A stretch of 64,000 nucleotides of DNA from Gemmatimonadales bacterium (GTDB lineage Bacteria > Gemmatimonadota > Gemmatimonadetes > Gemmatimonadales > GWC2-71-9). The notes below the pieces were generated by a model. That model saw only the letters and a list, made by a program, of their open reading frames with translations. It made no database searches and had not been told where the DNA came from. Below, one piece after another: positions 1,785 to 59,854 of this stretch. A program made the translations under genes and the position numbers. The stretch lies in contig DATBKD010000005.1 in assembly GCA_036556025.1 (NCBI GenBank), forward strand, positions 13,845 through 77,844. The letters are read 5' to 3'. How positions within the stretch are numbered: the stretch's first letter is position 1; every line of letters starts with the position of its first letter.

Positions 1785-3248
1785 ATGGCGACCACGGCAC
1801 GCATTTCCGCTCCCCGGCGCACCTCCTCGGCCACCGAAGTCCAGAAGCTCCTCGACCTGATCAAGCAGAAAAACATCCAGGTCGTGGATGTGAAGTTCTG
1901 CGACCTTCCGGGGACGTGGCAGCATTTCTCCATCCCGGCCAACACCCTGGATGAGAGCCTGATCCGCGAGGGACTGGGTTTCGACGGCTCCTCCATCCGC
2001 GGCTTCCAGGCGATCAACGAGAGCGACATGCTGCTCATGCCGGATGTCTCGACGGCCTTCGTCGATCCGGTGCTCTCGGTGCCGACGCTGTCGCTCACCT
2101 GCGACATCTACGACCCGATCACGCTGGAGCCCTACTCCCGCGATCCCCGATTCGTTGCGTTCAAGGCCGAGGAGTATCTCCGCACCACCGGCATCGCCAC
2201 CGCCTCCTACTGGGGGCCCGAGGCGGAGTTCTTCATCTTCAACTCCGTCCGGTTCGACCAGAACGCGTTCGAGGGGTACTACCACATCGATTCGGAGGAG
2301 GGGGTCTGGAACTCCGGCCGGAACAGCGGTCCCAACCTGGGCCACCGGCCCCGGCACAAGGAAGGCTACTTCCCGGTTCCGCCGGTGGATCGGTTGCAGG
2401 ACGTGCGGTCCAAGATCATGCTCGCGATGATCGAGGCGGGCGTTCCGGTAGAAGTGCAGCACCACGAGGTCGGCACTGCGGGGCAGGCGGAGATCGACAT
2501 CAAGTTCGGCACCCTGGTCCAGACCGCCGACCGGCTAATGCTGTACAAGTACATCGTGAAGAACGTGTGTCACAACCTGGGGTACACTGCCACCTTCATG
2601 CCCAAGCCGCTTTTTGGAGACAACGGCTCGGGCATGCACTGCCATCAGTCGCTGTGGAAGGGAGACACCCCGCTGTTCTTCGACAAGGACGGCTACGCCC
2701 TCATCTCGGAGACCGCGCGGCATTACATCGGCGGACTGATCGCGCACGCCCCGGCGCTCCTGGCGATCTGTGCTCCGACCACCAACAGTTACCGCCGGCT
2801 GGTTCCCGGCTTCGAGGCGCCGGTCAACCTGATGTACTCGGCGCGCAACCGGTCGGCTATCTGCCGCATCCCGATGTATTCGACCAGTCCCAAGTCCAAG
2901 CGGGTCGAGTTCCGCGCGCCCGACCCCAGCGCGAACCCCTATCTGGCTTTTTCCGCCATGCTGATGGCCGGGCTCGACGGCATCAGGCGGAAGCTCGAGC
3001 CGCCCAAGCCGATCGACGAGGACCTGTACGAAATCCACGACGAGCGCAAGCAACTGATCAAGCAGGTGCCGGGCAGCCTCTCGGAGTCGATCGAAGCCCT
3101 GGAGAAGGACCACGACTTCCTGCTGGCCGGCGACGTGTTCACCGCCGACGTGATCGATACCTGGATCACCATGAAGCGGACCAAGGATATCGCGCCGGTG
3201 ACTCTGCGGCCGCATCCGTACGAGTTTTTCCTGTATTATGACAGCTAA
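1785..3248 (+). CDS. glnA: glutamine synthetase, type I
   Basis: 487-aa ORF. The N-terminal [19 protein letters not shown], the [12 protein letters not shown] motif, [12 protein letters not shown] and the C-terminal region are typical of GlnA. Confidence 0.97.
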
Positions 3249-3403
3249 CAGCTAACAGCTATCAGCTATCAGCTATCAGCTATCAGCTGCGCCACAGCGA
3301 CGCGACCCTCCGGCGCCTTCATCGGAGGGTCGAGTGTCTCGGACTAGCGTTAGCTGTTAGCTGTTAGCCGTCAGCTGTTAGCCGTCAGCTGTTAGCTGTT
3401 AAC
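3242..3403. repeat. E1: tandem-heptamer palindromic hairpin element filling the glnA-ilvD gap
   Basis: The left array (3242-3290) has 7 units: CAGCTAA x2, CAGCTAT x4 and CAGCTGC. The centre holds the stem-loop CGACCCTCCG (3303-3312), a 10-nt loop, then CGGAGGGTCG (3323-3332). The right array (3350-3403) reads TTAGCTG TTAGCTG TTAGCCG TCAGCTG TTAGCCG TCAGCTG TTAGCTG TTAAC, the reverse-complement units. The glnA stop TAA (3246-3248) lies in unit 1. The ilvD ATG is 9 nt after the right array. Confidence 0.9.
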
Positions 3404-9005: not shown

Positions 9006-10100
9006 TCAACCGGAGACGCTGGCAGGCGAAGGCTGAGCGACAGGCTTGCGGCCCGGCTTGTCCGGCGCCAACGGGGGACTGACGGCGCCGGAGCGCTTTC
9101 CTTCCTCGGACCAGGGCATCATCGCCCGAAGCTCGGCGCCCACGCGCTCGATCTCATGGTGCTTGTCGGCCTTGCGCAGCCGCTCGAAGTTGGCTCGGCC
9201 GGCGCGGTTCTCGGTCAGCCACTCCCGGGCAAAGGATCCGTTCTGGATCTCGTCCAGAATGCGGCGCATCTCCGCGCGGGTCTCCTCCGTGATCACTCGT
9301 GGGCCGCGGGTGTAGTCCCCGTACTCGGCAGTGTCGCTGATCGAGTAGCGCATAAACTGCATCCCACCGCGGTACATGAGATCCACGATCAGCTTGAGTT
9401 CGTGCAGGCACTCGAAATAGGCCATCTCTGGGCGGTAGCCCGCGGCCGTGAGGGTTTCGAAGCCGGCTTTGACCAACGCCGTCACTCCACCACAGAGCAC
9501 CGCCTGTTCGCCGAACAGATCGGTCTCGGTCTCCTCCCTGAAGGAGGTCTCGATCACACCAGCCCGAGTACAGCCGATCCCCGCGGCGTAGGCCAGAGCG
9601 TTGGCCAGCGCCTGTCCGCTCGCATCCTGATGGATGGCCACCAGGGCCGGGACTCCCCTGCCGGCTTCAAACTCACTGCGGACCAGATGGCCCGGCGACT
9701 TCGGGGCGACCATGCTGACGTCCACCCCGGCGGGTGGCACGATCTCGCCGAAATGAATGTTGAACCCATGGGCGAACATCAGGGTCTTGCCGGGACCAAG
9801 CGCTTGCTGGATCCCGCCTTCGTACACCCCGCGAGCGTCCTGGTCCGGCACCAGCATCATGATCACGTCGGCTGCCGCGGCCGCCTCGGCCACCGGCCGC
9901 ACATCGAGCCCGGCGGCCCGGGCCCGGTCCCATGACGCACTGCCAGCGCGCAATCCGACGACCACGCGGGCACCACTGTCCCGCAGATTCAGCGCGTGGG
10001 CGTGCCCCTGGCTGCCGTAGCCGATGATGGCGAAGGCGCGGCCCGAGAGCCGCTGACGGTCCGCGGCGGAGTCGTAGAAGATGTGAACGGGCTGGGTCAT
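9006..10100 (-). CDS. ilvC: ketol-acid reductoisomerase (class I) with low-complexity C-terminal tail
   Basis: 364-aa ORF. It has [19 protein letters not shown] (Rossmann motif) and the knotted-domain sequence. About 30 extra Pro/Ser/Ala-rich residues sit at the C-terminus. Confidence 0.96.
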
Positions 10101-10200: not shown

Positions 10201-10683
10201 TCACCTACCAGCCTCTAATGCCACCGCTCCACTCCGAGCCACCTCGAGGACCTCGAAACGCTCGAGCGCGCGGATGCAGGAGAGGACGAAAGCCTCGGAG
10301 CCGGTGAGCTCTACGATCATCGCTTCAGGACTGTCGTCAACCACCGAAGCGTGATAAAGCTGGACGACGTCCAGCAGCTCACCGTAGCGCTCCGCTGGAG
10401 CGCGAACTTTGACCAGGGCCAGTTCCCGGGCCACACCGTCCTGCGCGGCAAAGGAGGTTGCTTCACGCACCCCGATCATCTTCTGCAAATGCTTCACCGC
10501 GCGATCCGCCGCGGAGTCGTCTGACTGAATCATGATGGTAAGCCTCGAAAGTCCAGGGGTCGCCGTGGGTCCCACGGCAATACTGCGCACGGGCAAGTTC
10601 CGCCGACGAATCAACCCGACGGCCCGGGTGAGCGTGATGAGGCGGTCCTCCAGCAGGACCGTAACGGCGTGGGGCGCACTCAT
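10201..10683 (-). CDS. ilvN: acetolactate synthase small (regulatory) subunit
   Basis: 160-aa ACT-domain protein (LLEDRLITLTRAVGLIRRRNLPVRSIAV). Its start overlaps the ilvB stop by 4 nt. Confidence 0.9.
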   Translation of the reverse strand: MSAPHAVTVLLEDRLITLTRAVGLIRRRNLPVRSIAVGPTATPGLSRLTIMIQSDDSAADRAVKHLQKMIGVREATSFAAQDGVARELALVKVRAPAERYGELLDVVQLYHASVVDDSPEAMIVELTGSEAFVLSCIRALERFEVLEVARSGAVALEAGR

Positions 10684-12383
10684 ACCGGCGCGAGCCGGGG
10701 CGAGATCGCTTCCGACTCGATCGGCTCGGACAGGGATGCACCCGGGGGAATCATCGGATAGACGTTGGCTTCCTGCTCGATCTGGAACTCGACCAGGGCA
10801 GGTCCCGGCCGGTCAATCGCCGCCTGGACTGCTTGCTCCACCTCGCCGGCAGTTTCCACTCGCCAGCCGGGAATCCCATACGCCTCCGCCAGGCGAACGT
10901 AATCGGGACTCCAGATCGGCGTCGCCGAGTAACGGCGTCCGTGGAAGAATTGCTGCCATTGGCGGACCATGCCCAGATATCCGTTGTTGAAGATCGCCAT
11001 CTTTACCGGGATGCCTTCCTGCACCATGGTGGCGATCTCCTGCATATTCATCTGAAACCCGCCGTCCCCGGAGATGGCCCATACCGGTTCGCCCGGCCGG
11101 GCCAGGACCACGCCCATGGCCGCGGGCACGGCAAAACCCATCGTGCCGAGCCCACCCGAGGTGATGTGGGTGTTGGGGCGCTGATAGCGGAAAAGCTTGG
11201 CAACCCACATCTGGTGCTGGCCCACGTCGGATACGATGGTGCAGCGCCCGGAGATCAGATCGATGGCCTCCAGGATCCCCTCGGGAGACAGTCCCCCCCG
11301 GAAGCTCTCGGCCCTGGGGCGCACGAAGCCAGCGATCTCCTCTCGCCACTCCTCGCAGGTGCGACTCGGCACCGCCTCGATCAGCCGACCCAGCAGCTCC
11401 CGGGCGTCGCCCACCAGAGCGACGGTGACCGGCACATTCTTGCCGATCTCGGAGGGGTCAAGCTCGAGGTGAATCAGTTTTGCGCCCCGGGCGAAACCGG
11501 CGAGGTTGCCGGTCACCCGGTCGTCGAATCGGAGTCCCACTCCAAGAATGAGATCGGCCTGCTGGATCGCGCGGTTGACGTGGACCTCGCCATGCATGCC
11601 GGGCATGCCGAGATGCAGGGGGTGGGACTCGGGAAAGCCGCTGATGCCGAGCAAGGTGGTGATGACCGGGATCCCGGTCTTTTCGGCGAACGCCCGGAGC
11701 TCGCCGTAGGCATTGCTCAGCACGATGCCGTGGCCGGCCATGATCAGAGGCCGCCTGGCCTCGGCGATGAGCTGGGCGGCGGCTTGTAAGGACGGTAAGG
11801 ACGGTAAGGCGTACCCTTCGGCAACCTTCCCGTCCTTCCCGTCCATTCCGCCTTTACCGCCCTTCCATTCCACCTTCTGGTTCTGCACGTCCTTGGGAAT
11901 ATCGATCAGGACTGGGCCGGGACGTCCCTCCTGGGCCACAGCGAACGCGTCCCGCACCACGTCGGCCAGCTCCCCGGCATCCTCGACCAGCCAGCTGTGT
12001 TTGGTGATCGGCTGGGTGATGCCGATGATGTCGGTTTCCTGGAACGCATCCCGACCCATCATCGCTCGCGCCACCTGTCCGGTAATGGCGACTACAGGGG
12101 TGTTGTCCATGTGCGCCGTGGCCAGACCGGTCACGAGATTGGTAGCGCCCGGTCCCGATGTCGCGACGCAGACTCCCGCTCGCCCGCTGGCACGAGCGTA
12201 GCCATCGGCGGCATGGGCCGCCGCCTGTTCGTGGCGGACCAGCACGTGGCGCAATCCCGGATGCTCGGGCAGTGCATGGTAAAACGGCATGATCGCGCCG
12301 CCGGGATACCCGAAGAGGATTTCGACTCCCTCGTCGAGGAGAGCCTGGCAGAGGATTTGGGCGCCGGTGAGATGCTCCGTCAT
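10680..12383 (-). CDS. ilvB: acetolactate synthase large subunit (ThDP enzyme)
   Basis: 567-aa ORF with SGPGATNLVTGLATAHMD, GGLGTMGFAVPAAMG and GDGGFQMNMQE. It contains the repeat element E2 in frame. Confidence 0.96.
   Translation of the reverse strand: MTEHLTGAQILCQALLDEGVEILFGYPGGAIMPFYHALPEHPGLRHVLVRHEQAAAHAADGYARASGRAGVCVATSGPGATNLVTGLATAHMDNTPVVAITGQVARAMMGRDAFQETDIIGITQPITKHSWLVEDAGELADVVRDAFAVAQEGRPGPVLIDIPKDVQNQKVEWKGGKGGMDGKDGKVAEGYALPSLPSLQAAAQLIAEARRPLIMAGHGIVLSNAYGELRAFAEKTGIPVITTLLGISGFPESHPLHLGMPGMHGEVHVNRAIQQADLILGVGLRFDDRVTGNLAGFARGAKLIHLELDPSEIGKNVPVTVALVGDARELLGRLIEAVPSRTCEEWREEIAGFVRPRAESFRGGLSPEGILEAIDLISGRCTIVSDVGQHQMWVAKLFRYQRPNTHITSGGLGTMGFAVPAAMGVVLARPGEPVWAISGDGGFQMNMQEIATMVQEGIPVKMAIFNNGYLGMVRQWQQFFHGRRYSATPIWSPDYVRLAEAYGIPGWRVETAGEVEQAVQAAIDRPGPALVEFQIEQEANVYPMIPPGASLSEPIESEAISPRLAPV
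11785..11867. repeat. E2: 9-nt-unit palindromic element located in frame inside ilvB
   Basis: The plus strand reads TGTAAGGAC GGTAAGGAC GGTAAGGCG (11785-11811), a centre tacccttcggca, then AACCTTCCC GTCCTTCCC GTCCATTCC GCCTTTACC GCCCTTCCA (11823-11867). On the ilvB sense strand it is translated as WKGGKGGMDGKDGK-VAEGY-ALPSLPSLQ. Confidence 0.85.
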
Positions 12384-38233: not shown

Positions 38234-39610
38234 GTGGCGGCAGTCGAGCGCTCCAGCCGAATGCCGGTGTCCGCTGATGCCGCCTTCGCGTGGCACCAGC
38301 GCCCGGGCGCATTCGAGCGGCTCTTGCCGCCCTGGGAACGAGTCCAGGTCGTCGAACGGCGAGGTGGGCTGGAGGACGGCGGGGAGGTCGTGCTTCGGGT
38401 CCACTTCGGGCCAGTCACCTTTCGTTGGCTGGCCCGCCACCGGGACTACGTACAGGACCGCCAGTTCGCCGATGAGCAGGTGGAGGGGCCCTTCTCCCAC
38501 TGGTTGCATCGGCACGTCTTCGAGCCCGAGGGGGCGAACGCCAGCCGCCTGACCGATCGTATCGAATTCTCCCTGCCCCTCGGTCCGGCGGGCGCCGCCT
38601 TGAGCGACTGGGCTATCCGCTCCCGACTCGAGCGGATGCTGCAGTACCGGCATCGCCTGCTGCAGGATGACCTCAAGGCCCACCAGAGAGCTCCTCAGCA
38701 GAGCCTAAACGTGCTCGTGACCGGCTCGAGCGGGCTAGTGGGCAGCTCCCTGATCCCCTTCCTCACCACCGGGGGACATCGGGTCACCCGGCTGGTGCGT
38801 CGCACGCCGCGCAGCGGAGAAATTCAGTGGGATCCTTCGGCAGGCCGACTGGATCCCGCTGAGCTCGAAGGGATCGATGCCGTCGTGCACCTCGCGGGCG
38901 AGAACCTCGCCGCCCGCTGGTCGCCGGCGCGCAAACGGGCCATCCGCGATAGCCGAGTTTCGGCCACGCGCCTGCTGGCGCACGCGGTCGCCCAGTTGCA
39001 GCGTCGCCCTCGAGTCCTGGTCTCGACGTCCGCGGTCGGGGTTTATGGCAACCGCGGGGACCAGGTTCTCACCGAGACCGACGCAGACTCGGCCACACCG
39101 CCCGATTTCCTGGTCGACGTGGTCCGGGAGTGGGAGGCGGCGACCGAACCGGCTCGAGCGGCAGGCATACGGGTGGTGCTGCTTCGATCGGGATTAGTAC
39201 TCTCCCCGGCCGGCGGTGTGCTCGGGAGGATGTTGCCCGCCTTCCGGATGGGGGCTGGCGGTCGCCTCGGTTCTGGCCGGCAGTGGATGAGTTGGATCGC
39301 CATCGACGACACCATCGGCGCCATTCATCACGCCTTGACGACCGATAGCCTCTCGGGCCCGGTGAATGCGACCGCACCCAATCCGGTCACCAATCGGGAG
39401 TTTGCAGCCACTCTGGGGCGGGTGCTGGGACGCCCGGCGGTCTTGCCCGCGCCGGCCACTGCCCTGCGGCTGGCCTTTGGAGAAATGGCGGACGTTGCCC
39501 TGCTGGCAGGTGCTCGAGTCGTCCCGGCTCGGCTGACCCAAAGTGGCTACCAATTCCGACATCCGCACCTCGAAGACGCGCTGAGGTTTGTGCTTGGACG
39601 TGAGAAGTAA
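38234..39610 (+). CDS. SRPBCC-domain / NAD-dependent epimerase (TIGR01777, DUF1731-type) fusion protein
   Basis: 458-aa ORF with a GTG start. The N-terminus AFAWHQRPGAFERLLPPW is START/SRPBCC-like, followed by VLVTGSSGLVGSSL (Rossmann motif) and a DUF1731-like C-terminus. Its stop codon lies inside E3. Confidence 0.8.
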   Translation: MAAVERSSRMPVSADAAFAWHQRPGAFERLLPPWERVQVVERRGGLEDGGEVVLRVHFGPVTFRWLARHRDYVQDRQFADEQVEGPFSHWLHRHVFEPEGANASRLTDRIEFSLPLGPAGAALSDWAIRSRLERMLQYRHRLLQDDLKAHQRAPQQSLNVLVTGSSGLVGSSLIPFLTTGGHRVTRLVRRTPRSGEIQWDPSAGRLDPAELEGIDAVVHLAGENLAARWSPARKRAIRDSRVSATRLLAHAVAQLQRRPRVLVSTSAVGVYGNRGDQVLTETDADSATPPDFLVDVVREWEAATEPARAAGIRVVLLRSGLVLSPAGGVLGRMLPAFRMGAGGRLGSGRQWMSWIAIDDTIGAIHHALTTDSLSGPVNATAPNPVTNREFAATLGRVLGRPAVLPAPATALRLAFGEMADVALLAGARVVPARLTQSGYQFRHPHLEDALRFVLGREK

Positions 39611-39723
39611 GGAGTGAGAAGTGAGAGGTAAGAAGGCCACCGCCCTCCAGGTACGCTTGGCGCAGCGGGGGCCCTTCTCACCTCTTACTGCTCACATCTC
39701 ACTTCTCACTTCTTACTTCCTTC
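39600..39723. repeat. E3: tandem-heptamer palindromic hairpin element upstream of queC
   Basis: The left array is GTGAGAA GTAAGGA GTGAGAA GTGAGAG GTAAGAA (39600-39634). The centre contains CCCTCC and the mini-hairpin CCAGG-tacg-CTTGG (39647-39660). The right array is TTCTCAC CTCTTAC TGCTCAC ATCTCAC TTCTCAC TTCTTAC TTCCTTC (39675-39723). The upstream stop TAA (39608-39610) lies in unit 2. The queC ATG is 21 nt after the right array. Confidence 0.9.
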
Positions 39724-40446: not shown

Positions 40447-40529
40447 GAACTGCGTGAACCGCAAACTGTGAAACGTGAAGGCTGGTCATTCTCGTTTCGC
40501 CACTCACGTTTCACCTTTCACGCTTCACG
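40443..40529. repeat. E4: heptamer palindromic element filling the queC-queE gap
   Basis: The left array has loose units CTGAGAA CTGCGTGAA CCGCAAA CTGTGAA ACGTGAA (40443-40479). The right array is CTCACG TTTCACC TTTCACG CTTCACG (40503-40529). The queC stop TGA (40444-40446) lies in unit 1. The queE ATG is 4 nt after the right array. Confidence 0.8.
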
Positions 40530-40533
40530 GTCT

Positions 40534-47640: not shown

Positions 47641-47655
47641 GCTGGCCGCAAACGA

Positions 47656-47689
47656 ACGGGCCGCTCAGGTGAGCGGCCCGTTTCCTTTG
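47656..47689 (+). terminator. intrinsic terminator candidate after the cold-shock gene
   Basis: ACGGGCCGCTC, loop aggt, then GAGCGGCCCGT (47656-47681), followed by the T-rich TTCCTTTG. Confidence 0.6.
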
Positions 47690-47690
47690 C

Positions 47691-47806
47691 TGGCTATCAG
47701 CTAACAGCTATCAGCCAATCTCAATACTTTCGACCCTCCGATGTGGCTACCGGAGGATCAAAGCAGGTGGAGTAGCTGTTAGCCGATAGCTGATAGCTCC
47801 TAGCTT
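47691..47806. repeat. E5: tandem-heptamer palindromic element (same unit and core as E1) between the convergent cold-shock gene and infA
   Basis: The left array is TGGCTAT CAGCTAA CAGCTAT CAGCCAA (47691-47718). The core is CGACCCTCCG (47731-47740), a 10-nt loop, then CGGAGGATCA (47751-47760). The right array is GTAGCTG TTAGCCG ATAGCTG ATAGCTC CTAGCTT (47772-47806). The infA stop codon (47805-47807) abuts or overlaps the last unit. Confidence 0.88.
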
Positions 47807-48023
47807 ATTTGTGCCTGTAGATCACCCGCCCCCGCGTCAGATCGTATGGTGATAGCACCACACTCACCCGGTCGCCTTCGAGGACGCGAATCTTGAATTT
47901 GCTCATCTTCCCGGCGGCATACGCCAGGATCTCGTGGCCGTTCTCCAGCATCACCCGATAATTCCGATCGGGCAACACCTCGGTCACGACTCCCTCCATT
48001 TCGATCCCTTCTTCCTTGGCCAT
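47805..48023 (-). CDS. infA: translation initiation factor IF-1
   Basis: 72-aa [43 protein letters not shown]..., with an S1-like fold. GGAGGG precedes the ATG. Confidence 0.97.
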
Positions 48024-48127
48024 CCACGCCCTCCACTGGGATCAACCTGCATCCGGTTGCAAGCGCACCGGCTTGACGGGCGTGGAATCTGGCTCGCCCG
48101 CCCCGAGGAAGCAACTGCGCGAGTGCC

Positions 48128-49849
48128 TTACGAGGCTTTCCTTACGGGGAGCCGGCTGCGGGTCTGCTCGATCTGCTTCTCGACCAGCTCTACCAAAGTG
48201 CCGATGGTATCGGCATCGAAGCTGAGCTCGGCGCCCGCCACCCGGTACATCTCGGGGAGGCTTCGCACGGCGCCCAGGGCAAGCGCCTCCCGATAACGGG
48301 CTACCGCCCTTTGCGGGTCCTCCAGGCTGTTGCGCCAGACCTGGAGAGCGCCGACCTGAGCAATGCCATACTCGATGTAGTAGAATGGATACTGGAAGAT
48401 GTGCAGTTGCCGATACCAGCGGGCCACCCGCTCGCCCTCGAGTCCCGACCAGTCCACTCCCCGTTCAAACCGGCTGCGAATGCGAAGCCACTCCTCGTCT
48501 CTGGCTGCCGCATCGCCGCCCTTCCCGCTGCTGTAGATCCAGGTCTGGAACGCGTCAACCGAGGCAATGTGCACCAGGCTGAGAAGCACGTCCTCGAGGT
48601 GCTCCAGCCAGGCACTCCAGTGATCTTCGGGGGTGAAGTAGCCGGTCGGCTGAACCAGGTGCCCCGCTGCCAGCAGCTCCATGGACATGGAGGCAAGCTC
48701 GGCCGCCTCCGAGCCGGTATGCCGTTGCCAGACGAACGGCTGTGCATGGGCCGCAAAGGCATGGAAGGCGTGACCCGCCTCGTGCAGCAGGGTCATCACA
48801 TCATCCACCAGGCCCACCGCGTTCATGAAGATGAATGGCCGGCCGCGGAACTGGAGCGTCTCACAGTAACCACCCGGTGCCTTGCCCTTGCGACTCTCCA
48901 GGTCGAGGAGTCGTTCATCGATCATCGTCTGAAATTGCCGGCCAAGTGCCGGGTCGACCTGTTCGAACACCCGCTGCGCCTTGCTGGTAAACTCGGCGCT
49001 CGTCTGAAAGGGGCGAAGCGGAGTGGCCCGGTAGGGATCGACGGCCAAGTCCCACGGCCGCAGGACCGAGAGGCCCAAGCGGCGCCGCCGCACGTCCAGG
49101 ATGCGCCCCACTGCCGGCGCGACTGTCTGTTCGATGGCGCGGTGGAACCGCTCGCAGTCGGCGGGGGTGTAGTCGAACCGGAACTTCGCCGGGAAGATAT
49201 AGTCGCGAAAGTTGGCGAAGCCGGAGTTGGCGGCAGCCCGCTGCCGCAGCCCGTACATCCGGTCGAACAAGCCGGCCAGGGCATCGTGTTGGTCGATGTA
49301 CGGCTGGGTCGCCGCCCGGAAGGCGCGCTCCCGCACTGCTCGATCGGGACTCTTGAGAAACGGCTGGAGCTGAGGCAGGGGGCGCTCTTCCCCGTCCCAC
49401 TCCACCGTCATCGAACCGGTGATTCGCTGGTAGCGGGCGCTCAGCTCCTCCAGTTCGGCGAACAGCGGAACGTTCTCCTCGCGAAAGATCTCGATCGAAG
49501 TCCGAAACCGGGCCAGAGTGGTTTGGAGCTGCGGAGTGGTGTAACCCGACTCAACCAGCCGGCGAGCCAGCTCCACACTGCGCTCCTCCATGCGGGGCAA
49601 GATCTCGGTGCTGAAGCGCAGATGATCGGCTTCCTTGGCCGCATCGGAGGTGTCGATGGTATAGGCAATCATCGCCTGGGCGGCAGCCTCACCGACCAGC
49701 TCCTCCAGGGTGGACCACTCGTGCAACCAGCCCTCGATCGCCTCCGCCGGAAGCGGGCGCCGGGCGAGCTCATCGAAGTAGGGGGAAATATCCTGCCACC
49801 GCGCCTTGGCCAGCGCGGCGGGGGACGAGGGCAACACTGAAACGGTCAC
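48128..49849 (-). CDS. M3-family oligoendopeptidase (PepF-like)
   Basis: 573-aa ORF with a GTG start. HEAGHAFH is the zinc motif, and the overall pattern is M3B-like. Confidence 0.88.
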   Translation of the reverse strand: MTVSVLPSSPAALAKARWQDISPYFDELARRPLPAEAIEGWLHEWSTLEELVGEAAAQAMIAYTIDTSDAAKEADHLRFSTEILPRMEERSVELARRLVESGYTTPQLQTTLARFRTSIEIFREENVPLFAELEELSARYQRITGSMTVEWDGEERPLPQLQPFLKSPDRAVRERAFRAATQPYIDQHDALAGLFDRMYGLRQRAAANSGFANFRDYIFPAKFRFDYTPADCERFHRAIEQTVAPAVGRILDVRRRRLGLSVLRPWDLAVDPYRATPLRPFQTSAEFTSKAQRVFEQVDPALGRQFQTMIDERLLDLESRKGKAPGGYCETLQFRGRPFIFMNAVGLVDDVMTLLHEAGHAFHAFAAHAQPFVWQRHTGSEAAELASMSMELLAAGHLVQPTGYFTPEDHWSAWLEHLEDVLLSLVHIASVDAFQTWIYSSGKGGDAAARDEEWLRIRSRFERGVDWSGLEGERVARWYRQLHIFQYPFYYIEYGIAQVGALQVWRNSLEDPQRAVARYREALALGAVRSLPEMYRVAGAELSFDADTIGTLVELVEKQIEQTRSRLPVRKAS

Positions 49850-49889
49850 GAGAACTCCCAGGTCACGAGCGATCCGGTCGAGGCTCCGA

Positions 49890-49918
49890 GATATACCCGG
49901 AGCAGATTACCATGTCTA
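49890..49918 (-). promoter_or_regulatory. sigma70-like promoter candidate for the M3 peptidase gene
   Basis: On the minus strand: TAGACA (49918-49913), a 17-nt spacer, then TATATC (49895-49890). Confidence 0.3.
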
Positions 49919-49939
49919 TCATCGACGGCAAGGCCGAGC

Positions 49940-51817
49940 TTACGAAGTTCCGGCGGTGCGGTCGTGGCGGTAATAGAGATAGGCAAGCGACAGCATGACG
50001 AAGCCGAGCAGAAAAACCGATCCAATCCGGTAGAGCGCATCGAGCGAGGACAGGTCGAAAAAGACGACCTTCACGATCGCGAGCCCAGCGACCGTAAGGC
50101 CGGCCACCCGAACCGGCTTGAGCGCGCGCCCGAAGCCGAGCGCGACCAGCGTCGCCGCGAAGACCAGCCACCAGGCGCTGACGGCCAGCCCGCCGGCCAG
50201 AGCGGCATTTTCCATCGAGATACTCCGCAGCTCAAAGAACCGGCGAATCTCTGCCGTGACGCCGAACAGCAGCATCATCCCGGCGACGGTCCAGAGCGCG
50301 TTCCTCATCAGCCGGGTGTTCTCCCTGGCCGGGTCTCCTTTCCACAGCCCCGCGGCCAGCACCACAGTGCCGGCGATGCTGCCCCACTGCGCCAACGCCC
50401 AGGGTCCCACGAAAGCGGGATCCGCCGCCGTCCGCCGGGCCAGAGCGCCATTGAACAGGTACTCGAGAGCAAATGCCAGGGTCACGGAGCCGTACCAGCG
50501 ACCATCGGTCCGGTCCAAGCGATGATCCAAGGCCGGCCAGAGCAGGGCGAGGCCAAGCAGCAGCCAAACGCGAGCGACCCCGTCCCATTGGGCCATGGGT
50601 GCTACAGCGGCCGCGGCCGCTCCCACCAGGGCAAAGGCCGGGAGGGGACGCAGGTAACCGACGAGAAGATAGGGCACGGCCACAAGCAGAGGAACCAGCT
50701 CCCGGTGCTCGCGAAATCGCTCGGGGGCGATGGTGTGGAGAGCCCAACCCAACAGCAACGGAGTGGTGAAGAAATAGAGGGTTTCCCCCGCTGACCAGCC
50801 GGGGCCGGTTCCTTGAGGAGCGAGGTCCAGCGGGAGCACCTGAGGCCGCCGAAGTCCGTGCCACCAGACCGGCGCGGAGAGCACCACGGCCGCCGCCAGG
50901 ATCGGCCAGTGATGGTGCATGCGGTCATTGGCCGCGGCGAGAAACCACCACCCTCCCGAGAACGTGAGGAAACGCGTCTCCCACCACCGTTCCCGGAGAC
51001 CGATGTATAGTCCGGCTGTTCCACCGATCATCCCGAAGAGCAGGACGGCCCAGGGCACCGCGCGATCCGCGGCACCCGCCGTCCCCACCCCGAAGTAGCT
51101 GGCTGCCACGACCAGCATGGCCAGGCGCCACCCACGGCGCGCGGCAACCAGGCCAAGGCCGGCAGCCATGCTGGCCAGATAGAGCAGGAGAAGGTTCGCG
51201 TTGGACCGATCATGTCCCAGGAGAACCGGCGCGAGAAAGGCACCGAGCGCAGCTGTGGTGCCCAGAGCTTCCACGTTGATGGCGTAGGCGATCATGGCGA
51301 GGGCGATCGAGACCAACGCCAGGCCGACGATGCCGATGAACGAGGGGACCACACCGTAGAGGCGGGACGCCGCCCAGACACTCAGGTAAATGATTCCTGC
51401 CCCGCAGCCGATCAAAGCCGCACCGTAGGTCCGATAGCGCGACTGCAGCCGCCAGCCGATGGCTCCGACGATCACTCCTGCACCGACCCCACCGATGCAG
51501 CGCATGACCGGGGTGATCCAGTTTCGGTCGAAGGAGAGCTTGAGTAGGTAGCCCATGGCGGTGATCAGGGCCGCCACGCCTACCGCGAGCAGCCCTCGCT
51601 GGCCAATCCATTGCTCCGAGGTGAGATGGCTCTTCGGCCGCGGGCCCGGAGGTGGAATCGGCGGGGCAGCGGCCGCCGGCGCGGCCGCTGGTCGGGGAGG
51701 GGGCGGAGCGAGCGGTGCGGCCGGAGCTGCAGCAGCTCTTCCGGCAAGCTCCCGGATCAGCGATTCAAGAACAGCCACCCGCTGCTCCAGACGGTCGATC
51801 CGATCGTCCGGACTCAC
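49940..51817 (-). CDS. DUF2339-like polytopic membrane protein
   Basis: 625-aa ORF. An N-terminal coiled segment (RIDRLEQRVAVLESLIRELAGR) and a Pro/Ala-rich linker are followed by many hydrophobic segments. The family assignment is from memory of the DUF2339 architecture. Its GTG start overlaps the MFS stop (GTGA). Confidence 0.6.
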   Translation of the reverse strand: MSPDDRIDRLEQRVAVLESLIRELAGRAAAAPAAPLAPPPPRPAAAPAAAAPPIPPPGPRPKSHLTSEQWIGQRGLLAVGVAALITAMGYLLKLSFDRNWITPVMRCIGGVGAGVIVGAIGWRLQSRYRTYGAALIGCGAGIIYLSVWAASRLYGVVPSFIGIVGLALVSIALAMIAYAINVEALGTTAALGAFLAPVLLGHDRSNANLLLLYLASMAAGLGLVAARRGWRLAMLVVAASYFGVGTAGAADRAVPWAVLLFGMIGGTAGLYIGLRERWWETRFLTFSGGWWFLAAANDRMHHHWPILAAAVVLSAPVWWHGLRRPQVLPLDLAPQGTGPGWSAGETLYFFTTPLLLGWALHTIAPERFREHRELVPLLVAVPYLLVGYLRPLPAFALVGAAAAAVAPMAQWDGVARVWLLLGLALLWPALDHRLDRTDGRWYGSVTLAFALEYLFNGALARRTAADPAFVGPWALAQWGSIAGTVVLAAGLWKGDPARENTRLMRNALWTVAGMMLLFGVTAEIRRFFELRSISMENAALAGGLAVSAWWLVFAATLVALGFGRALKPVRVAGLTVAGLAIVKVVFFDLSSLDALYRIGSVFLLGFVMLSLAYLYYRHDRTAGTS

Positions 51818-53052
51818 GAGACCCCAGCCTCCTGCTTGGCAGCGGTTGCAGCGGGCACCCGGCCGTCGGCGCTGATCTGGAACGCCATGATGCCTACCAA
51901 AGCGACGTATCCCCCTGCGACATAGAAGGGCCAGCCGTGACCAATGCGCTGGAAGATGGTAGTGGCGAGAAGCGGCGCGCCTACGCGCGCTAGACCGGCA
52001 AAGGTCTGCGCGACACCCATCGTGGTGCCCAGTTCGCCCGGATCAGAGTAGCGAGACATGAGGGATGTCGTGGCCGGGAACAGCAGCGCCGTCCCGATCG
52101 GCACCAGCGGTATGACCGCGGCCAAGGTCCAGAGATCCCTCGGCATAGGATACAGCACCAGCCCAAGGGCGAGAAGGGCGGTCCCCGTGCGCATCGTCCA
52201 GACCTCGCCGAGGCGATCCACGATCGGGCCCAGGAGCAGGCTGCGCATGACCAGCGACAGCGCTCCGATGTACGCGAAGATAGGTCCGATGTTCGCCTCG
52301 GTCAGCCGGAACTCCGCACCCAGGTACAAGGCCAGCACCGACGTCATGGACGAGAACGCCAGCATCCCCACGCCGTAGATCCAGATCAGGCGCGACACCG
52401 GTTGCGCCGGATGGCGCACCACCAGCCACGCCGGGTGCCAGAGGGGCCTGTGCGGCGGCCTGCCGACGGCGGCTGCGCGGCTCCGCGACTCAGGTAGCCA
52501 TTTCCAGGCGAACCCCACATTCAACAGACACAGGGCCGCGGCAACCAGCCCCGGGACCTCATGGCCGAAGTGGAAAGCGAACGAGCCCAGGGCCGGGCCC
52601 AGAATCACACCGGCCGAGGTGGCGGCCGAGAGCCAGCCCAGGGCTCGGGCCCGATCCTTGGGCTCGATGGAATCGGCCACGTACGCCTGGGCCACTCCGG
52701 TCGTGCCGCCGCCGGCCCCCTGCACGATTCGCGATGCCAGCAGCAGCCAGACGCTGTCGGCAAAACTGAACACGACGTAGGCAATGGCCGACGCACTCAA
52801 GCCGATCAGCAGGGCCGGCCGACGCCCATAGCGATCGGAGACCCGCCCCCACACCGGGGCGGCGAGCAGCTGCGCGATGGAGAACGAGGCGATCAGCTGG
52901 CCGACCGTTTCGGGCGAGGCGTTCAGCTTGAGGGCGTAGAACGGCAGCAGCGGGAGCACGATCATGAAGCCGATCATGTCCACGAAGTTGACCGCGATCA
53001 GCACCGCCAGCCGCCGGAAGTTGGCACCCGGGCCAGGCCCGGCCAGCTTCAT
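51814..53052 (-). CDS. MFS transporter
   Basis: The start is trimmed to ATG 53052, which overlaps the permease TGA (ATGA). The 412-aa product has about 12 hydrophobic segments and the MFS motif A GRVSDRYGRRPALL. Confidence 0.88.
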   Translation of the reverse strand: MKLAGPGPGANFRRLAVLIAVNFVDMIGFMIVLPLLPFYALKLNASPETVGQLIASFSIAQLLAAPVWGRVSDRYGRRPALLIGLSASAIAYVVFSFADSVWLLLASRIVQGAGGGTTGVAQAYVADSIEPKDRARALGWLSAATSAGVILGPALGSFAFHFGHEVPGLVAAALCLLNVGFAWKWLPESRSRAAAVGRPPHRPLWHPAWLVVRHPAQPVSRLIWIYGVGMLAFSSMTSVLALYLGAEFRLTEANIGPIFAYIGALSLVMRSLLLGPIVDRLGEVWTMRTGTALLALGLVLYPMPRDLWTLAAVIPLVPIGTALLFPATTSLMSRYSDPGELGTTMGVAQTFAGLARVGAPLLATTIFQRIGHGWPFYVAGGYVALVGIMAFQISADGRVPAATAAKQEAGVS

Positions 53053-55780: not shown

Positions 55781-56943
55781 CGCTTTCCCGTGTTGCGCAC
55801 GTGCCGGTCCCAGTAGCTCATCCAGGCGGTCCCATTGCGAGCGAGCAGGTCCCAGTCCATGTGAGTCACCACCATCTGGCTCTCCACCTGTGCCACCCAC
55901 GCGGGAATTCGGTCGCTTGGCAGGTCGCGCCTGGCCGGAAGCCGAAATACTCGGTCGGCAGCGAGCAACTGACCTTCCTCGCTGCCCACGTAGTCGATGA
56001 ACGCCCTGGCGGCCTCGGCGTGGTGACAACCCTTGACCAGGCCGATCGCGTCGTCGATCACCACGGTTCCGCTGGTCGGAAAGACATAGTCGAAGGGCAG
56101 TCCTTTGGACCGGCTGATCAACACATCCGGAAGATCCCACAAGGTCAGGAGTCCCTCGCCCCGGGCGAGCCGGGCATCGAGGATCGCCGGGTTCAAGGTG
56201 TACGCCTTGGTCTGGCCGTCCAGCCGCCTGAGCCAGGCGATGCCTTGAGTGGTGTCGCCCGTCTCCCGAAGACTGCGCACCAGGATGAGGCCCCAGATCG
56301 CACGCATGGTACCGCTCGCCATGGGATCGCGGATCAGGATCTTGCCGCTCCAGCGCGGAGCGAGCACCTCGTCCCAATCCTTGGGCGCGCGCTCCCGGGA
56401 CAGCAGCCGATCATTGAACGCAATCACCACCGGCGTGCGGTAAACCGGATAGTACAGATCATTCGGGCCCACGCCACCGGTGCCCACATGATCCGCCCAG
56501 GCGGGACGATACGGGGCCAGCAGCGAATCCTTGACGCCGCGGTCAAAAATCGTGGTGGGCCCGCCGAACCACACGTCCGCCTGGGGGTTGACCCGCTCGA
56601 ACCGTAACCGATCGAGGATCTCCTGGGATCCCATGTCGAGCCAGCGCACGTCAATGTCCGGCCGCTTGGCCTCGAAGGCATGCTCCAGCAGCGTGAGCTG
56701 ATCTCGGCCGTGGGGCGAGTAGAGGACGAGGGGGGTCCGGTGGTCGGAGGTGCAGGCGGTAAGGACGGGAAGGGCGGTAAGGGCGGTAAGGACGGGAAGG
56801 ACGGTAATGACGGGAAGGACGGGAAGGACGGGAAGGACGGGAAGGGCGGGAAGGCACACGACGAGGGACCTACTCGCGTGTTTCCGAAACCAACGCAGTA
56901 GGTCCCTCCCTTCGCTGGGGATCACGCTCGAGGTTCTTCGCAC
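55777..56943 (-). CDS. ABC transporter periplasmic substrate-binding lipoprotein (iron(III)-type family 1 binding protein)
   Basis: The mature domain starts around PLVLYSPHGRDQ. The lipobox is LTAC. The only in-frame start codons between the upstream gene's stop and the mature domain are GTG 56943 (preceded by AGAGGA), GTG 56925 and GTG 56859, and all lie upstream of the 9-nt array. The array is therefore translated as LPALPVLPVLPVLPVITVLPVLTALTALPVLTAC. Confidence 0.8.
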   Translation of the reverse strand: MRRTSSVIPSEGRDLLRWFRKHASRSLVVCLPALPVLPVLPVLPVITVLPVLTALTALPVLTACTSDHRTPLVLYSPHGRDQLTLLEHAFEAKRPDIDVRWLDMGSQEILDRLRFERVNPQADVWFGGPTTIFDRGVKDSLLAPYRPAWADHVGTGGVGPNDLYYPVYRTPVVIAFNDRLLSRERAPKDWDEVLAPRWSGKILIRDPMASGTMRAIWGLILVRSLRETGDTTQGIAWLRRLDGQTKAYTLNPAILDARLARGEGLLTLWDLPDVLISRSKGLPFDYVFPTSGTVVIDDAIGLVKGCHHAEAARAFIDYVGSEEGQLLAADRVFRLPARRDLPSDRIPAWVAQVESQMVVTHMDWDLLARNGTAWMSYWDRHVRNTGKR

Positions 56944-56999
56944 TCTCTGTCCTCTGCCTCCCTTCCCCGTCCTTACCGCCCTTCCCGCCCTTCTCGCCC
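56758..56999. repeat. E6: 9-nt-unit palindromic element between the PIG-L gene and the ABC binding-protein gene
   Basis: The left array has 11 units of GG(G/T)AAGG(A/G)C (56758-56856). The centre is the 12-bp stem GAGGGACCTACT (56863-56874), a 22-nt loop, then AGTAGGTCCCTC (56897-56908). The right array has 4-5 units including GTCCTTACC GCCCTTCCC GCCCTTCTC (56958-56999). The upstream gene's TAA (complement of 56973-56975) lies inside a unit. Confidence 0.9.
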
Positions 57000-59648
57000 A
57001 TGCGCCAAGGCTAGCAGATTGGCGAACAGGCGGAAGGCGCCGGGAACGCCGGCCGGCAGCTGCCGGAAAAAGCTGAGCCCGGTGTAGACGTAGGTTCCCT
57101 TCCCTGCCCGGGCGATGAGAAGTCCGCCTTCGAGCGGCGCATCGCCCGCATCGTGGGTCTCCAGGATCGGCCGATAGGCCCGGTCCCAACTCCGCGCGAA
57201 GTACAGACCTCGCTCCTGGATCCAACCCTGCCAATCGGATGGCTCCAGCCGGTTAGGCCGCATCACAACCAGGTCCTGCGGGGTCAGGACCCGCACCGGT
57301 GCGGTTTCATCGGTCACCCTGTCGTGCACCACCATGGACTGACCCGCTGGCGCGCCGGCAAAGCCACTGCTCTGACCCGGCGGTTGAAGTGCGGGCCCTC
57401 CCACGGTCATGGAGTAGGGCGCAAAGCCCCCGTGGAAAAAGAACTGCTGCTGGTACTGGACGATGAGCAGCCCGCCGTCGCGGAGGTACTGCAGCAGTCG
57501 ATCGTTGTTCTCTACCAGGGCGGAGTCGGTTTCATAGGCCCGGGGGCCGACGACGATGGCGTCATAGCGGTGAAGGTCGGCATGCTCCAGCGTCTGCCTA
57601 TCGAGAAGCACGACGGGCACACCGACTTCTTCGAGTGCTTCAGGAACCTGATCCGCCGCCCCTCGGACATAGCCGACCCGAGCCAGCTGGGGAAGAGCGA
57701 CCGGACTCAGTCGAACGGTCGCGGTCGCCGCACGGATATAGGAACGGGGACGGATGTGCGGATAGGCGACGGTATAGTCGCCGACGTCATAGTCCCGGCC
57801 CAGAGTGTCTCGGGCAACCGCTCGGATCTGCGCGGTCACCTTCCGCGATGCCGCAGGCGGCCGCACCTGGAAGATGAAGGTCTCCCTCTGATCCTCCCGC
57901 TCCAGCCGGAAGGACTGCTGCGGCACCGGCGGCCACCCCTGGGGTAACATGAGCCGGACCCGGCCGGCCGTGGTGTCCTTGGCCCCGTGGGTCAGAGTGA
58001 CGATAAGCCGATGGGTCTTAGGCGCCAGCGTGGGCCATAGCTCCATGGAGGGCTCGAGCTTGACATCCACTCGCGGCACCACGGTGAGCGGCCGGCGGAT
58101 CTCGCCGCGTGCCTGATCGACCGTGCGGAAGACCACCTCCCGCTCCACGGTGAACCGCCCTGCACTGTCCATTACCGTGAACCTGCCACTCAGCGTCGGT
58201 GGGGCGAACGGGAGCCCCCGCACCTCGGGCGGCGCGCCGTCCCACCGGTAGAGGGCAGTCCCCGCAGGGTCCAGGCTGAAGTACGGGGTAGTAGTCTGGT
58301 CGCCGGCTACGACTGTGATCTGGGACCTCATCATCTGCCCTGGGCCGACCGGCCTCTCTTCGCCGTCCGGTCCCCGAATGGTCCATCCGTCGCCGGCCGC
58401 AAGTCGGATGGCAACCCGCGCCGCCCGGCCGGATGGATTCCATACGGTCAGCAGGGCGTGAACCTCCTGCCCCGGAACAATCCTGTCGTCATCGGCCACG
58501 GCGTCGAAAACGAGGGGTGACGCGGCTTCGGCAGCGGCGTCGAGGTGCCGCAGCTGGTCGGCCTCAGCGGCACTGGGACCCGAGGACCAGGCATTGCCAC
58601 TGGCCTTGGGCGGAAGATCGGACTCGAACTCTTGTCGAAGTGAGATCAGTCTGGCGGCGAGATTTGAGTCTGCCAACCTTGCCGGCCGGAGCGCTCCCAG
58701 CTTTCGGGCCAGGTCGGACCACGCGGCCGGCGTCGTGGGCCTGCCGGCCGACGAGGAGGCGGTGCGTGGATCGGCCGCTGCGAGCGTGGTATCGATTCCG
58801 TCCCACAGACCGCCCGCACCCAGGCGACTCCGGTCCTGCCACAAGGCCAGCCGTATGGGAGAGGGTCCCATGTCCTGAAGCCGTCCCATGTCTTGCGAGC
58901 GATGCAGGCTTCGCCCTGCCATCGCAATCTGATGGAATGACTTGCCGACAGCTGGATCGAGGACGCCTCCCTCGAGGGTGAGCGTCGTGGATCCGCTGTC
59001 GAACCGGGTGCTGCGATAGAGCTTGATCGGGGTCCAGGCCGCCAGATGCTCCTCCCGCTCCAACTCGGGAAAGGCCGACGAGTCCCCGGCGATCCGAAAC
59101 GCCTCCTGGGATGCCCATCCCGCCGCTTGATGCTGCCCGTGGCCATCGCGCGGGGTCCCACTGAACACCGACACGACGATCTGAGGACGAAACCGGCGGA
59201 TGACGCGAACCACATCTTTGAGGATTGTGTCCTTGGACCAGTGCTGCCAGGTCTCGTCCAAGGTCTTGGAGTACCCGAAATCGTAGGCCCGGGTAAAATA
59301 CTGCCGCGCTCCATCCAGTCGGCGAGCGGCCAGGAGCTCCTCGGTGCGAATCAGTCCCAGAGCTTCCCCCAGCTCCGGGCCGATCAGATTCTGGCCACCC
59401 TCGCCGCGGTTGAGCGACAGGTAGGCTGCTTCGGAGCCCATGCCCCGCACGAGGACGGTCAGCAGCTCGGTATCCTCGTCGTCCGGGTGGGCGCCGATCA
59501 TCAGCACCCGCTTGTAGTGCCCCAGAAACCGGAGCTCCCGGTCCAGAGCGACGATACCGCCGGTGGACGGCGGCTCCAGTTGAGCCGATGCGGCGGGAGC
59601 GATGGCGAAACCGAAGAGCGCGGAGAGGGCGATGAGCCTGCGAGGCAA
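56973..59648 (-). CDS. PIG-L/LmbE-family deacetylase fused to a large C-terminal region, secreted
   Basis: 891-aa ORF with a TTG start and a signal peptide (MPRRLIALSALFGFAIAPAASA). It has VLMIGAHPDDEDTELL, the PIG-L motif. The C-terminal 8 residues GREGREGR are encoded by the E6 right arm. Confidence 0.82.
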   Translation of the reverse strand: MPRRLIALSALFGFAIAPAASAQLEPPSTGGIVALDRELRFLGHYKRVLMIGAHPDDEDTELLTVLVRGMGSEAAYLSLNRGEGGQNLIGPELGEALGLIRTEELLAARRLDGARQYFTRAYDFGYSKTLDETWQHWSKDTILKDVVRVIRRFRPQIVVSVFSGTPRDGHGQHQAAGWASQEAFRIAGDSSAFPELEREEHLAAWTPIKLYRSTRFDSGSTTLTLEGGVLDPAVGKSFHQIAMAGRSLHRSQDMGRLQDMGPSPIRLALWQDRSRLGAGGLWDGIDTTLAAADPRTASSSAGRPTTPAAWSDLARKLGALRPARLADSNLAARLISLRQEFESDLPPKASGNAWSSGPSAAEADQLRHLDAAAEAASPLVFDAVADDDRIVPGQEVHALLTVWNPSGRAARVAIRLAAGDGWTIRGPDGEERPVGPGQMMRSQITVVAGDQTTTPYFSLDPAGTALYRWDGAPPEVRGLPFAPPTLSGRFTVMDSAGRFTVEREVVFRTVDQARGEIRRPLTVVPRVDVKLEPSMELWPTLAPKTHRLIVTLTHGAKDTTAGRVRLMLPQGWPPVPQQSFRLEREDQRETFIFQVRPPAASRKVTAQIRAVARDTLGRDYDVGDYTVAYPHIRPRSYIRAATATVRLSPVALPQLARVGYVRGAADQVPEALEEVGVPVVLLDRQTLEHADLHRYDAIVVGPRAYETDSALVENNDRLLQYLRDGGLLIVQYQQQFFFHGGFAPYSMTVGGPALQPPGQSSGFAGAPAGQSMVVHDRVTDETAPVRVLTPQDLVVMRPNRLEPSDWQGWIQERGLYFARSWDRAYRPILETHDAGDAPLEGGLLIARAGKGTYVYTGLSFFRQLPAGVPGAFRLFANLLALAHGREGREGR

Positions 59649-59651
59649 GAG

Positions 59652-59854
59652 GTCGAGAGGTTAGAAGTTAGCAGTGAGCAGTGAGCAGTGAATAGTGAGC
59701 AGTGAGTAGGAGCCAGTGAGCAGTGGATCGACGGAGCAACCTCCATAATGCCGTGCGCGGGAACGGCCTCGGGGAGCTACTTCTTACTTTTCACGCGTTA
59801 CCGCACGGCGCACTGCTTTCGGCTTTCTCACTCCTTACTGCTGACTGCTATCTC
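59652..59854. repeat. E7: tandem-heptamer palindromic element between a small membrane-protein gene and the PIG-L gene
   Basis: The left array (59652-59728) has about 11 units, including GGTTAGA AGTTAGC AGTGAGC AGTGAGC AGTGAAT AGTGAGC AGTGAGT AGGAGCC AGTGAGC. The centre has GGAG-caac-CTCC (59733-59744). The right array (59776-59854) is good at the outer end (TTCTCAC TCCTTAC TGCTGAC TGCTATC) and degenerate toward the centre. The upstream stop TAG (complement of 59848-59850) lies in the outer unit. The downstream TTG start (59648) is 3 nt beyond the other array. Confidence 0.85.

Follow-up and report, generated by a model that had tools for sequence, protein, structure and literature searches.

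Background

Rickettsia palindromic elements (RPE) are insertions of about 100–150 bp that add tens of residues to a protein when it is compared with its orthologs. They were reportedly described by Ogata et al. in 2000. Summaries of the RPE are given in PMC3733652 and PMC10969869. Here we investigate a palindromic repeat that is read in frame within ilvB, the gene for the large subunit of acetolactate synthase (AHAS), at positions 11785–11867 of a 64,000-nt stretch of DNA from a Gemmatimonadales metagenome-assembled genome (MAG) [GenBank: GCA_036556025.1, contig DATBKD010000005.1, positions 13,845 to 77,844]. This whole stretch is referred to as the window.

Repetitive extragenic palindromes (REPs) that are GTAG- or CGTC-tagged are short GC-rich palindromes found mostly between unidirectional or convergent open reading frames (ORFs) (Di Nocera et al. 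2013, PMC3733652). Those that are intragenic are present as insertions, encode 20–30 aa and are concentrated in replication and repair genes (PMC3733652). The RAREFAN and REPORTH reports describe REPINs as vertically inherited and as persisting in bacterial lineages for millions of years.

Tandem heptamer arrays have been described in Xanthomonas (GGGAATC) and in Nostoc (GGGGA[CT]T, of the short tandemly repeated repetitive, STRR, type). Their head-to-tail units are dispersed over the genome, and frequently two arrays on opposite strands converge and can form stem-loops; the arrays lie near or overlap ORF ends, vary in copy number and are intragenic in few cases (Rehm et al. 2015, PMC4692102). 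G-quadruplex formation, whose mark is at least four G3 tracts per array, has been considered for these arrays; they are under-represented on coding strands, and none is reported there as an enzyme inter-domain linker or as a conserved coding slot (PMC4692102). In the mitochondrial genes of Nematomorpha, coding palindromes are perfect inverted repeats of up to 284 bp (PMC6649704). The top literature matches on repeats of Gemmatimonadetes or Gemmatimonas do not mention the taxon and hold no report of such elements in Gemmatimonadota.

The ilvB element has features of several of these systems. Like an RPE, it is a palindromic, hairpin-forming repeat translated in frame inside an intact conserved gene at a tolerant position. 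Like the Xanthomonas and Nostoc arrays, it iterates a short unit, here of 9 nt, head to tail (2.7 and 4.7 copies) in two arrays that are convergent, close together and able to form a stem-loop. As in the Nematomorpha, both arms of a long inverted repeat in coding sequence are translated. The sequence-only reading in which the element was first noticed had named RPE as the only well-known parallel; the intragenic REPs and the inverted heptamer arrays have to be added.

Is the element an insertion into ilvB, or is the repeat itself the linker? In our best reading the segment is one copy from a class of hairpin-forming repeats that is spread genome-wide; in this lineage such repeats take the form of inverted arrays of short tandem units. 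The ilvB linker is a long-lived, tolerated slot for genomic repeats and not the site of a one-off insertion, since relatives carry different hairpin repeats at the same spot.

The ilvB element and its host gene

On the sense (minus) strand the element consists of the G-rich array GGAAGGGCGGTAAAGGCGGAATGGACGGGAAGGACGGGAAGG, a 15-nt centre and then GCCTTACCGTCCTTACCGTCCTTAC, and its translation is WKGGKGGMDGKDGKVAEGYALPSLPSLQ, exactly as the sequence-only reading had described it. Its parts, and the gene that holds them, are as follows.

10680..12383, minus strand: ilvB, the host gene, biosynthetic AHAS large subunit of 567 aa (from the ORF and from Pfam and PDB matches)
11825..11867, minus strand: 5' (sense) G-rich arm, about 4.7 copies of the 9-nt GG[GT]AAGG[AG]C, read (W)KGGKGGMDGKDGK; Tandem Repeats Finder (TRF) array at 11825–11866 with period 9 and unit (CCTTCCCGC)x4.7
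11810..11824, minus strand: 15-nt centre coding for most of VAEGY, which with the inner arm ends forms the apical stem-loop of the fold
11785..11809, minus strand: 3' (sense) C-rich arm, 2.7 copies of CCTTACCGT, read ALPSLPSLQ; TRF array at 11786–11809 with unit (GTAAGGACG)x2.7 and 100% matches
11790..11844, minus strand: core hairpin with arms 11790–11809 and 11825–11844, 18/20 complementary (90%) and 15 nt apart

As RNA the element folds at -44.7 kcal/mol (z = -4.48), which none of 200 shuffles equals, and as DNA at -24.2 kcal/mol (z = -4.71). The predicted stem is about 21–24 bp, shorter than the 27 bp first estimated, and both of its mismatches are G.A. The sense-strand units had been thought free of stop codons in every frame; there is a TAA in frame 2, within GGTAAAGG. 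The G-rich arm has three GGG runs and many GG runs. Neither a GTAG nor a CGTC tag is present within 11785–11867, and the sequences on either side of it (...GGTGGAATGG and AAGCCGCC...) hold no direct repeat. It was rejected as a miniature inverted-repeat transposable element, as there is no target-site duplication and the arms are tandem arrays rather than IS-like terminal inverted repeats. It was likewise rejected as an intrinsic terminator, as no T-run (the U-tract of the transcript) follows the stem. A scan of the whole window against Rfam at gathering thresholds gave no match.

The host ORF is the biosynthetic AHAS large subunit (IlvB/IlvI). Its product has the Pfam domains TPP_enzyme_N (6–121), M (199–334) and C (386–533), and its closest solved structures are the plant, E. 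coli and yeast AHAS (Arabidopsis 3e9y/1ybh, E = 6e-140; E. coli 6lpi, E = 2e-135). The gene order is leuA before ilvB, then ilvN and ilvC.

10201..10683: ilvN, downstream of ilvB
9006..10100: ilvC, downstream of ilvN

The element codes for residues 173–200 of IlvB, which bridge the Pyr domain, whose strands run to about residue 172, and the central domain, and the Pfam boundaries thus agree with the inter-domain location first proposed for it. There is no net insertion, because the linker is of ordinary length: counted from PKDV to RPL (the conserved RP/KP), it has 44 aa in the window IlvB and 42 aa in the Arabidopsis AHAS 3e9y/1ybh. An insertion in the manner of RPE is therefore not what the alignment gives; the repeat fills an ordinary linker. 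IlvB orthologs with 80–93% identity are 560–577 aa long. An AlphaFold2 model from a 24-sequence alignment suggests that residues 176–193 are a low-confidence coil (pLDDT <50), in a model of mediocre overall quality (mean pLDDT 66).

The same 567-aa IlvB has been assembled in two further JGI metagenomes. The DNA of one of these contigs (L165; ilvB loci are given L numbers throughout) was examined, and its linker is the same base for base as that of the window. An assembly artefact is ruled out, since independent assemblies agree.

Repeat DNA and linker peptide

Only one other site in the window has the 9-nt unit of the ilvB element.

56757..56999, minus strand: the second site, found by tandem-array and pattern searches and called E6 in the sequence-only reading

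The 16-nt pattern GGKAAGGRCGGKAAGG, with at most 1 mismatch, has 15 matches in the window, all of them within 11785–11840 or 56758–56995, compared with a chance expectation of 0.01. This upholds the common unit of the two elements that had been proposed. At 56757–56854 the unit is read in another frame, giving LPV and not LPS as in ilvB.

The DNA repeat dictates the linker peptide and not the reverse, because the complementarity of the arms exceeds both codon-shuffled and same-peptide expectations and because the C-rich arm uses a codon that is otherwise unused. None of 1000 codon-order shuffles attains the observed inverted-repeat score or folding energy, and only 4 of 1000 synonymous redraws of the same peptide attain the score. 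The refutation proposed in the sequence-only reading, complementarity no higher than codon shuffling gives, is thus not borne out. The Leu codon TTA occurs three times in the C-rich arm and in none of the 631 Leu codons of 11 other long genes in the window.

Alternatively, selection on the protein for a linker rich in Gly and Lys and then in Leu, Pro and Ser might have produced the complementarity as a by-product of peptide composition. The same-peptide redraws do still fold fairly stably (mean -34.5 kcal/mol), and 70 of 1000 match the observed folding energy. The redraws nonetheless seldom reach the inverted-repeat score, TTA is unused in the other sampled genes, close orthologs have unrelated linker peptides, and at E6 another frame of the same unit is read. 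Selection on the peptide is already disfavoured by these results, and we regard it as highly improbable.

The linker slot in Gemmatimonadales

A total of 165 Gemmatimonadales ilvB loci were gathered, with 158 distinct linker sequences. All ortholog sequences are from MAGs or metagenome contigs, with flanks of at most 20 kb. A strong linker palindrome was defined by an inverted-repeat score of at least 12, and 1814 size-matched windows in the same genes served as controls. Inverted repeats at this threshold are present in 73 of the 158 linkers (46%) versus 0.33% of the control windows. The palindrome always starts directly 3' of the conserved K-x-E-W codons.

The ortholog proteins are 72–93% identical overall and their linker is hypervariable; even orthologs with 80–93% identity have unrelated peptides there, which bears out the lineage specificity of the segment. 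The palindrome sequences are specific to clades. The window and its two nearest relatives have GG[GT]AAGGAC 9-mers in the linker, and the sister lineages have the unit GGCGGTAA or GGCGGTAC. Other clades have GGGGCAGC, GGCGGACC, GGTCGGAC, GGTCAGTC or GATGGTCC. Further types are the 7-mers GGTGTCG and GGGGCTC and the 10-mer GGCGGGAGCA. In more distant clades the palindromes are not tandem, for example the GTAG-tagged REP GTAGGGGCGCAG-CATG-CTGCGCCCCTAC, which is in the ilvB slot of L123, L126, L132 and L139, and CCCCGGGCTCGCGCCCGGGGTCAG. Even close relatives in cluster 24, with at least 88% identity outside the linker, have differing palindrome types. The other 54% of orthologs, including whole clades such as cluster 31, have linkers of similar length without a palindrome; linkers with a palindrome average 47.6 aa against 42.6 aa, only about 5 aa longer.

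The sequence-only reading had attributed retention of the reading frame to the 9-nt period. Among the arrays in ilvB linkers there are 25 of 8-mers, 4 of 7-mers, 2 of 9-mers and 1 of a 10-mer, and outside the linkers 7-mers dominate (88). Since 8-mers prevail in the relatives, a frame-neutral period of 9 nt is not required, and an essential 9-nt period was rejected. Translation imposes only the avoidance of stop codons on the linker repeat. In the GGCGGTAA 8-mer arrays, those units that would have an in-frame TAA always read TAT or TAC instead (L082, L081, L163, L164, L031), and the result is a recurrent RRYGG peptide.

The nearest relative of the window, L161, matches it at 62% of four-fold degenerate sites, a value near saturation, yet the arms of the linker palindromes are 85–100% complementary and are kept so in most lineages. 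With neutral divergence near saturation, persistent complementarity of the arms needs an active process. Hyper-rapid turnover of the linker is not claimed, as the linker core is 76% identical to that of L161 and so changes no faster than the four-fold sites.

One such process would be selection on the hairpin as a cis-acting structure, in either the mRNA or the DNA of ilv-leu. It might slow ribosomes at the boundary between the Pyr and central domains for co-translational folding, or act in mRNA stability or processing in the leuA-ilvB-ilvN-ilvC operon. Any hairpin-forming repeat would serve, so that the sequence turns over while the structure stays. A palindrome at the same codon positions in 46% of orthologs despite the near-saturated neutral divergence, its fixed start after the K-x-E-W codons, the strong fold of the window copy and the recurrence of palindromes at fixed points of the operon (the IlvC tail and the leuA-ilvB spacer) are all in its favour. 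Other results weigh against a selected structure. More than half of the orthologs do without a palindrome at a similar linker length. On the sense strand of the 73 linker hairpins, A.C mismatches (78) outnumber G.T mismatches (38), the opposite of what tolerance of G.U pairs in mRNA would give, and the two mismatches of the window stem are G.A. The window stem is followed by no U-tract and has no Rfam match, and the same repeats are present at unrelated loci such as 56757–56999. We consider a selected structure unlikely. The suggestion that the hairpin acts as a translational pause site in particular finds no support, given the excess of A.C mismatches and the presence of the same repeats in IlvC tails and spacers.

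In L034 (10498–10537) the linker is only 13 aa (QTQKLEYAAGRAE), and the variable part and the L..AA.LIA helix that follows are absent. This could be a deletion mediated by the hairpin or repeat, a pseudogene or an assembly error.

Shared units within genomes

Within a genome, the unit of the ilvB linker is found again at other sites, both in that operon and outside it. At least 10 genomes have a further palindrome of this unit at the ilvC 3' end, some 3 kb downstream of ilvB. There it is translated as a C-terminal tail of IlvC (KARI) after MMPWSEEGK, and the stop codon lies 3' of the palindrome. The unit common to linker and tail is GGGGCAGC in L009, L028, L044, L021, L026 and L095, the 10-mer in L032 and L102, and GGGGCTC in L121. 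In L123 an identical 28-nt GTAG palindrome is present in both places, and in L116 the two copies differ at few positions. The leuA-ilvB spacer can also be involved: that of L080 has the unit of the linker, and that of L064 has a related 8-mer array of the GGCGG type. Slots of the same genome share a mean of 2.54 10-mers, versus 0.52 across genomes. Such sharing is an argument for repeats being exchanged or mobilised together within a genome and against a purely ilvB-specific origin. In the 2.1 Mb of Gemmatimonadales loci there are 160 pairs of inverted tandem arrays able to form a stem-loop.

Palindromic tandem arrays are found in the leuA-ilvB spacer just upstream of the ilvB start in L080 (6678–6782), L064 (4309–4439), L063 (9868–9998) and L008 (1627–1687). 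In the window itself the IlvC tail and the leuA-ilvB spacer have no significant structure (z = +1.2 and +0.2). The window IlvC has a 34-aa tail past KARI_C, in which only a 10-bp stem is retained (about 9061–9092).

These data bear on a purely in-situ origin, in which an ancestral G-rich stretch (AAGGCGGAGTGG...) was expanded by slippage, made palindromic by template switching and inherited vertically since, with no exchange between loci. The likeness to other elements would then be a convergence of G-rich units. Most of the tandem-unit types do retain a GGCGG core resembling the conserved flank AAGGCGGAGTGG, the types are largely clade-specific, and most loci have no second copy in the flanks examined. 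Weighing against such an origin are the identical palindrome in the ilvB linker and ilvC tail of L123, the matching 7-, 8- and 10-mer units at both sites in at least 10 genomes, the 16-nt unit pattern common to the ilvB element and 56757–56999, and the presence in the same slot of types that lack GGCGG (GGGGCTC, GATGGTCC, CCCCGGGCTCGCGCCCGGGG). An origin wholly within ilvB is, on this evidence, quite improbable.

The sharing between slots might also be read as modularity. The palindromes would be selected cis-elements of the ilv-leu operon with set positions in the leuA-ilvB spacer, at the IlvB domain boundary and in the IlvC tail, read by a genome-specific trans factor or by the machinery of translation or decay; in a related form of this idea the hairpins would be homing targets, with new repeat families overwriting old ones at orthologous slots. 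Units would then co-evolve across the slots of a genome, and in ilvB the palindrome would link the domain-wise folding of AHAS to the speed of translation or the fate of the mRNA. We think it doubtful, and rather improbable, that the elements are such modules.

Origin and maintenance of the element

The ilvB element is probably a member of a REP-like or tandem-array repeat family that occupies a permissive coding slot, the surface linker between the Pyr and central domains, and is simply translated. Permissiveness is supported by the hypervariable linker within proteins that are 80–93% identical, the low-confidence coil of the model and a length like that of solved AHAS. In our best reading the hairpin is kept by the dynamics of the element itself rather than by a demonstrated function. 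The slot would have been colonised early in the order, and its content repeatedly overwritten or homogenised from copies of the active repeat family of each genome, by gene conversion or by transposition-like copying. Complementarity of the arms may be maintained by slippage and by hairpin-templated (quasipalindrome) template switching, and not by selection specific to IlvB. Correction of quasipalindromes by template switching is known from E. coli genetics, reportedly in work by Ripley and by Lovett. The outcome for the protein would be a neutral, flexible loop rich in Gly, Lys and Pro.

Several points weigh against this explanation. No transposase or REP-associated tyrosine transposase (RAYT, a Y1 transposase) was found, though no search aimed at one was made, and a single-copy gene is unlikely to lie within 64 kb. 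Only in a minority of genomes is there evidence of exchange between loci. At most loci no second copy of the ilvB unit or arm is present in the flanks, which is uninformative given that these are at most 20 kb. A hairpin at one exact coding position across the order, despite complete turnover of its sequence, is also expected from selection on structure, and its position at a domain boundary is suggestive of function. Lastly, all of the data come from MAGs and metagenome contigs.

Comparison with described repeats

The element also differs from described repeats. In contrast to RPE there is no net insertion in ilvB (44 versus 42 aa), with linkers that have a palindrome only about 5 aa longer on average. 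The slot is filled across the whole order by differing sequences, and the window arms are built of 9-nt tandem units; the defined Rickettsia families (RPE-1 to RPE-8) are set apart from this array by their description, not by comparison of sequences.

The spacer elements of the window are mostly between co-directional genes, the typical distribution of REPs (PMC3733652), and the relatives L123, L126, L132 and L139 hold a true GTAG-tagged palindrome in the ilvB slot. The window ilvB element, however, is built of tandem units and has neither tag. REPs are present in many dispersed copies; here the count is two sites with the ilvB unit and six strong members of the class, within the 64 kb of the window only. 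The Gemmatimonadales units are 7–10 nt long with many different sequences per genome, unlike the heptamers of Xanthomonas and Nostoc, and the palindromes of Nematomorpha are mitochondrial and perfect and differ in mechanism and taxon. In function the class resembles REP/REPIN elements and the heptamer arrays of Xanthomonas and Nostoc. As a translated palindromic repeat the ilvB element works like intragenic REPs and RPEs, and in structure it matches the convergent arrays of Xanthomonas and Nostoc.

Three features appear to be new: tandem-unit palindromes as the inter-domain linker of an enzyme, an order-wide conserved coding slot with turnover of its sequence, and co-variation of units between the coding slots of one operon. 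Repeat-derived hairpins can thus constitute, and not merely insert into, the inter-domain linker of an essential and highly conserved enzyme, and a coding slot can outlast its content, persisting throughout an order as the repeats in it change together with those elsewhere in each genome. The slot offers a natural system in which to separate maintenance at the level of structure (template switching, conversion, palindrome homing) from functional constraint. With it, an abundant and poorly studied soil phylum joins Rickettsia as a source of in-frame palindromic repeats. Caution is also called for in annotation, alignment and phylogeny, as repeat DNA makes up both the hypervariable linker of IlvB and the tail of IlvC.

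Other repeat elements in the window

Six inverted repeats in the window score at least 14, and all six are built of tandem units (3241–3399, 11790–11844, 39597–39712, 47693–47790, 56811–56996 and 59666–59853). The ilvB copy is the only one of these strong elements wholly inside coding sequence. The other five are in spacers, four between co-directional genes and one (47693–47790) between convergent ORFs. Besides E6, the spacer elements are as follows.

3241..3399: inverted 7-mer arrays CAGCTAT / TAGCTGT around a central hairpin, in the glnA-ilvD spacer
39597..39712: inverted 7-mer arrays GTGAGAA / CTTCTCA, between co-directional ORFs
47693..47798: inverted arrays GCTATCA / TAGCTGA, of the same family as 3241–3399, with the central hairpin CGACCCTCCG...CGGAGG
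59666..59853: 7-mer AGTGAGC x8.6 with a degenerate inverted partner, between two minus-strand ORFs

Each element type seems to consist of tandem-unit arms and a unique central stem-loop. The elements at 3241–3399 and 47693–47798 have a common 7-mer unit (CAGCTAT / GCTATCA) and a similar central hairpin, CGACCCTCCG...CGGAGG[GA]TC.

E6 has about 10.9 copies of its unit at 56757–56854, where there are more than 4 GGG runs, and 4.3 copies at 56960–56999, around a 105-nt centre with a hairpin of its own. Its G-rich arm (minus strand) overlaps the last codons and the TAA stop of a PIG-L-family gene (56973..59648). The PIG-L-family ORF ends ...HGREGREGR, and its stop lies within a GGCGGTAAGG unit. 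The C-rich arm of E6 shares its reading frame with the N-terminal part of a solute-binding-protein ORF. In this frame the long C-rich arm reads ...VVCLPALPVLPVLPVLPVITVLPVLTALTALPVLTAC|TSDHR, just before the solute-binding-protein domain. Judged by its sequence, the C-rich arm may resemble a lipoprotein signal peptide with the lipobox LTAC, in which case repeat DNA could encode a signal peptide.

A weaker element of the same class (GTGAAAC-type and then GTTTCAC-type 7-mers) lies at 40450–40530, in the short spacer before an ORF that starts at about 40537. Directly upstream of the 47693 element, at 47655–47690, is a terminator-like GC-rich hairpin with a T-run (GGGCCGCTCAGGTGAGCGGCCCGTTTCCTTT). 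In the block of minus-strand ORFs at 48001–56000 the AT skew is unusually high, at +0.16 to +0.23; elsewhere in the window it is mostly about +/-0.05, with +0.06 and +0.10 in the adjacent 56–64 kb bins.

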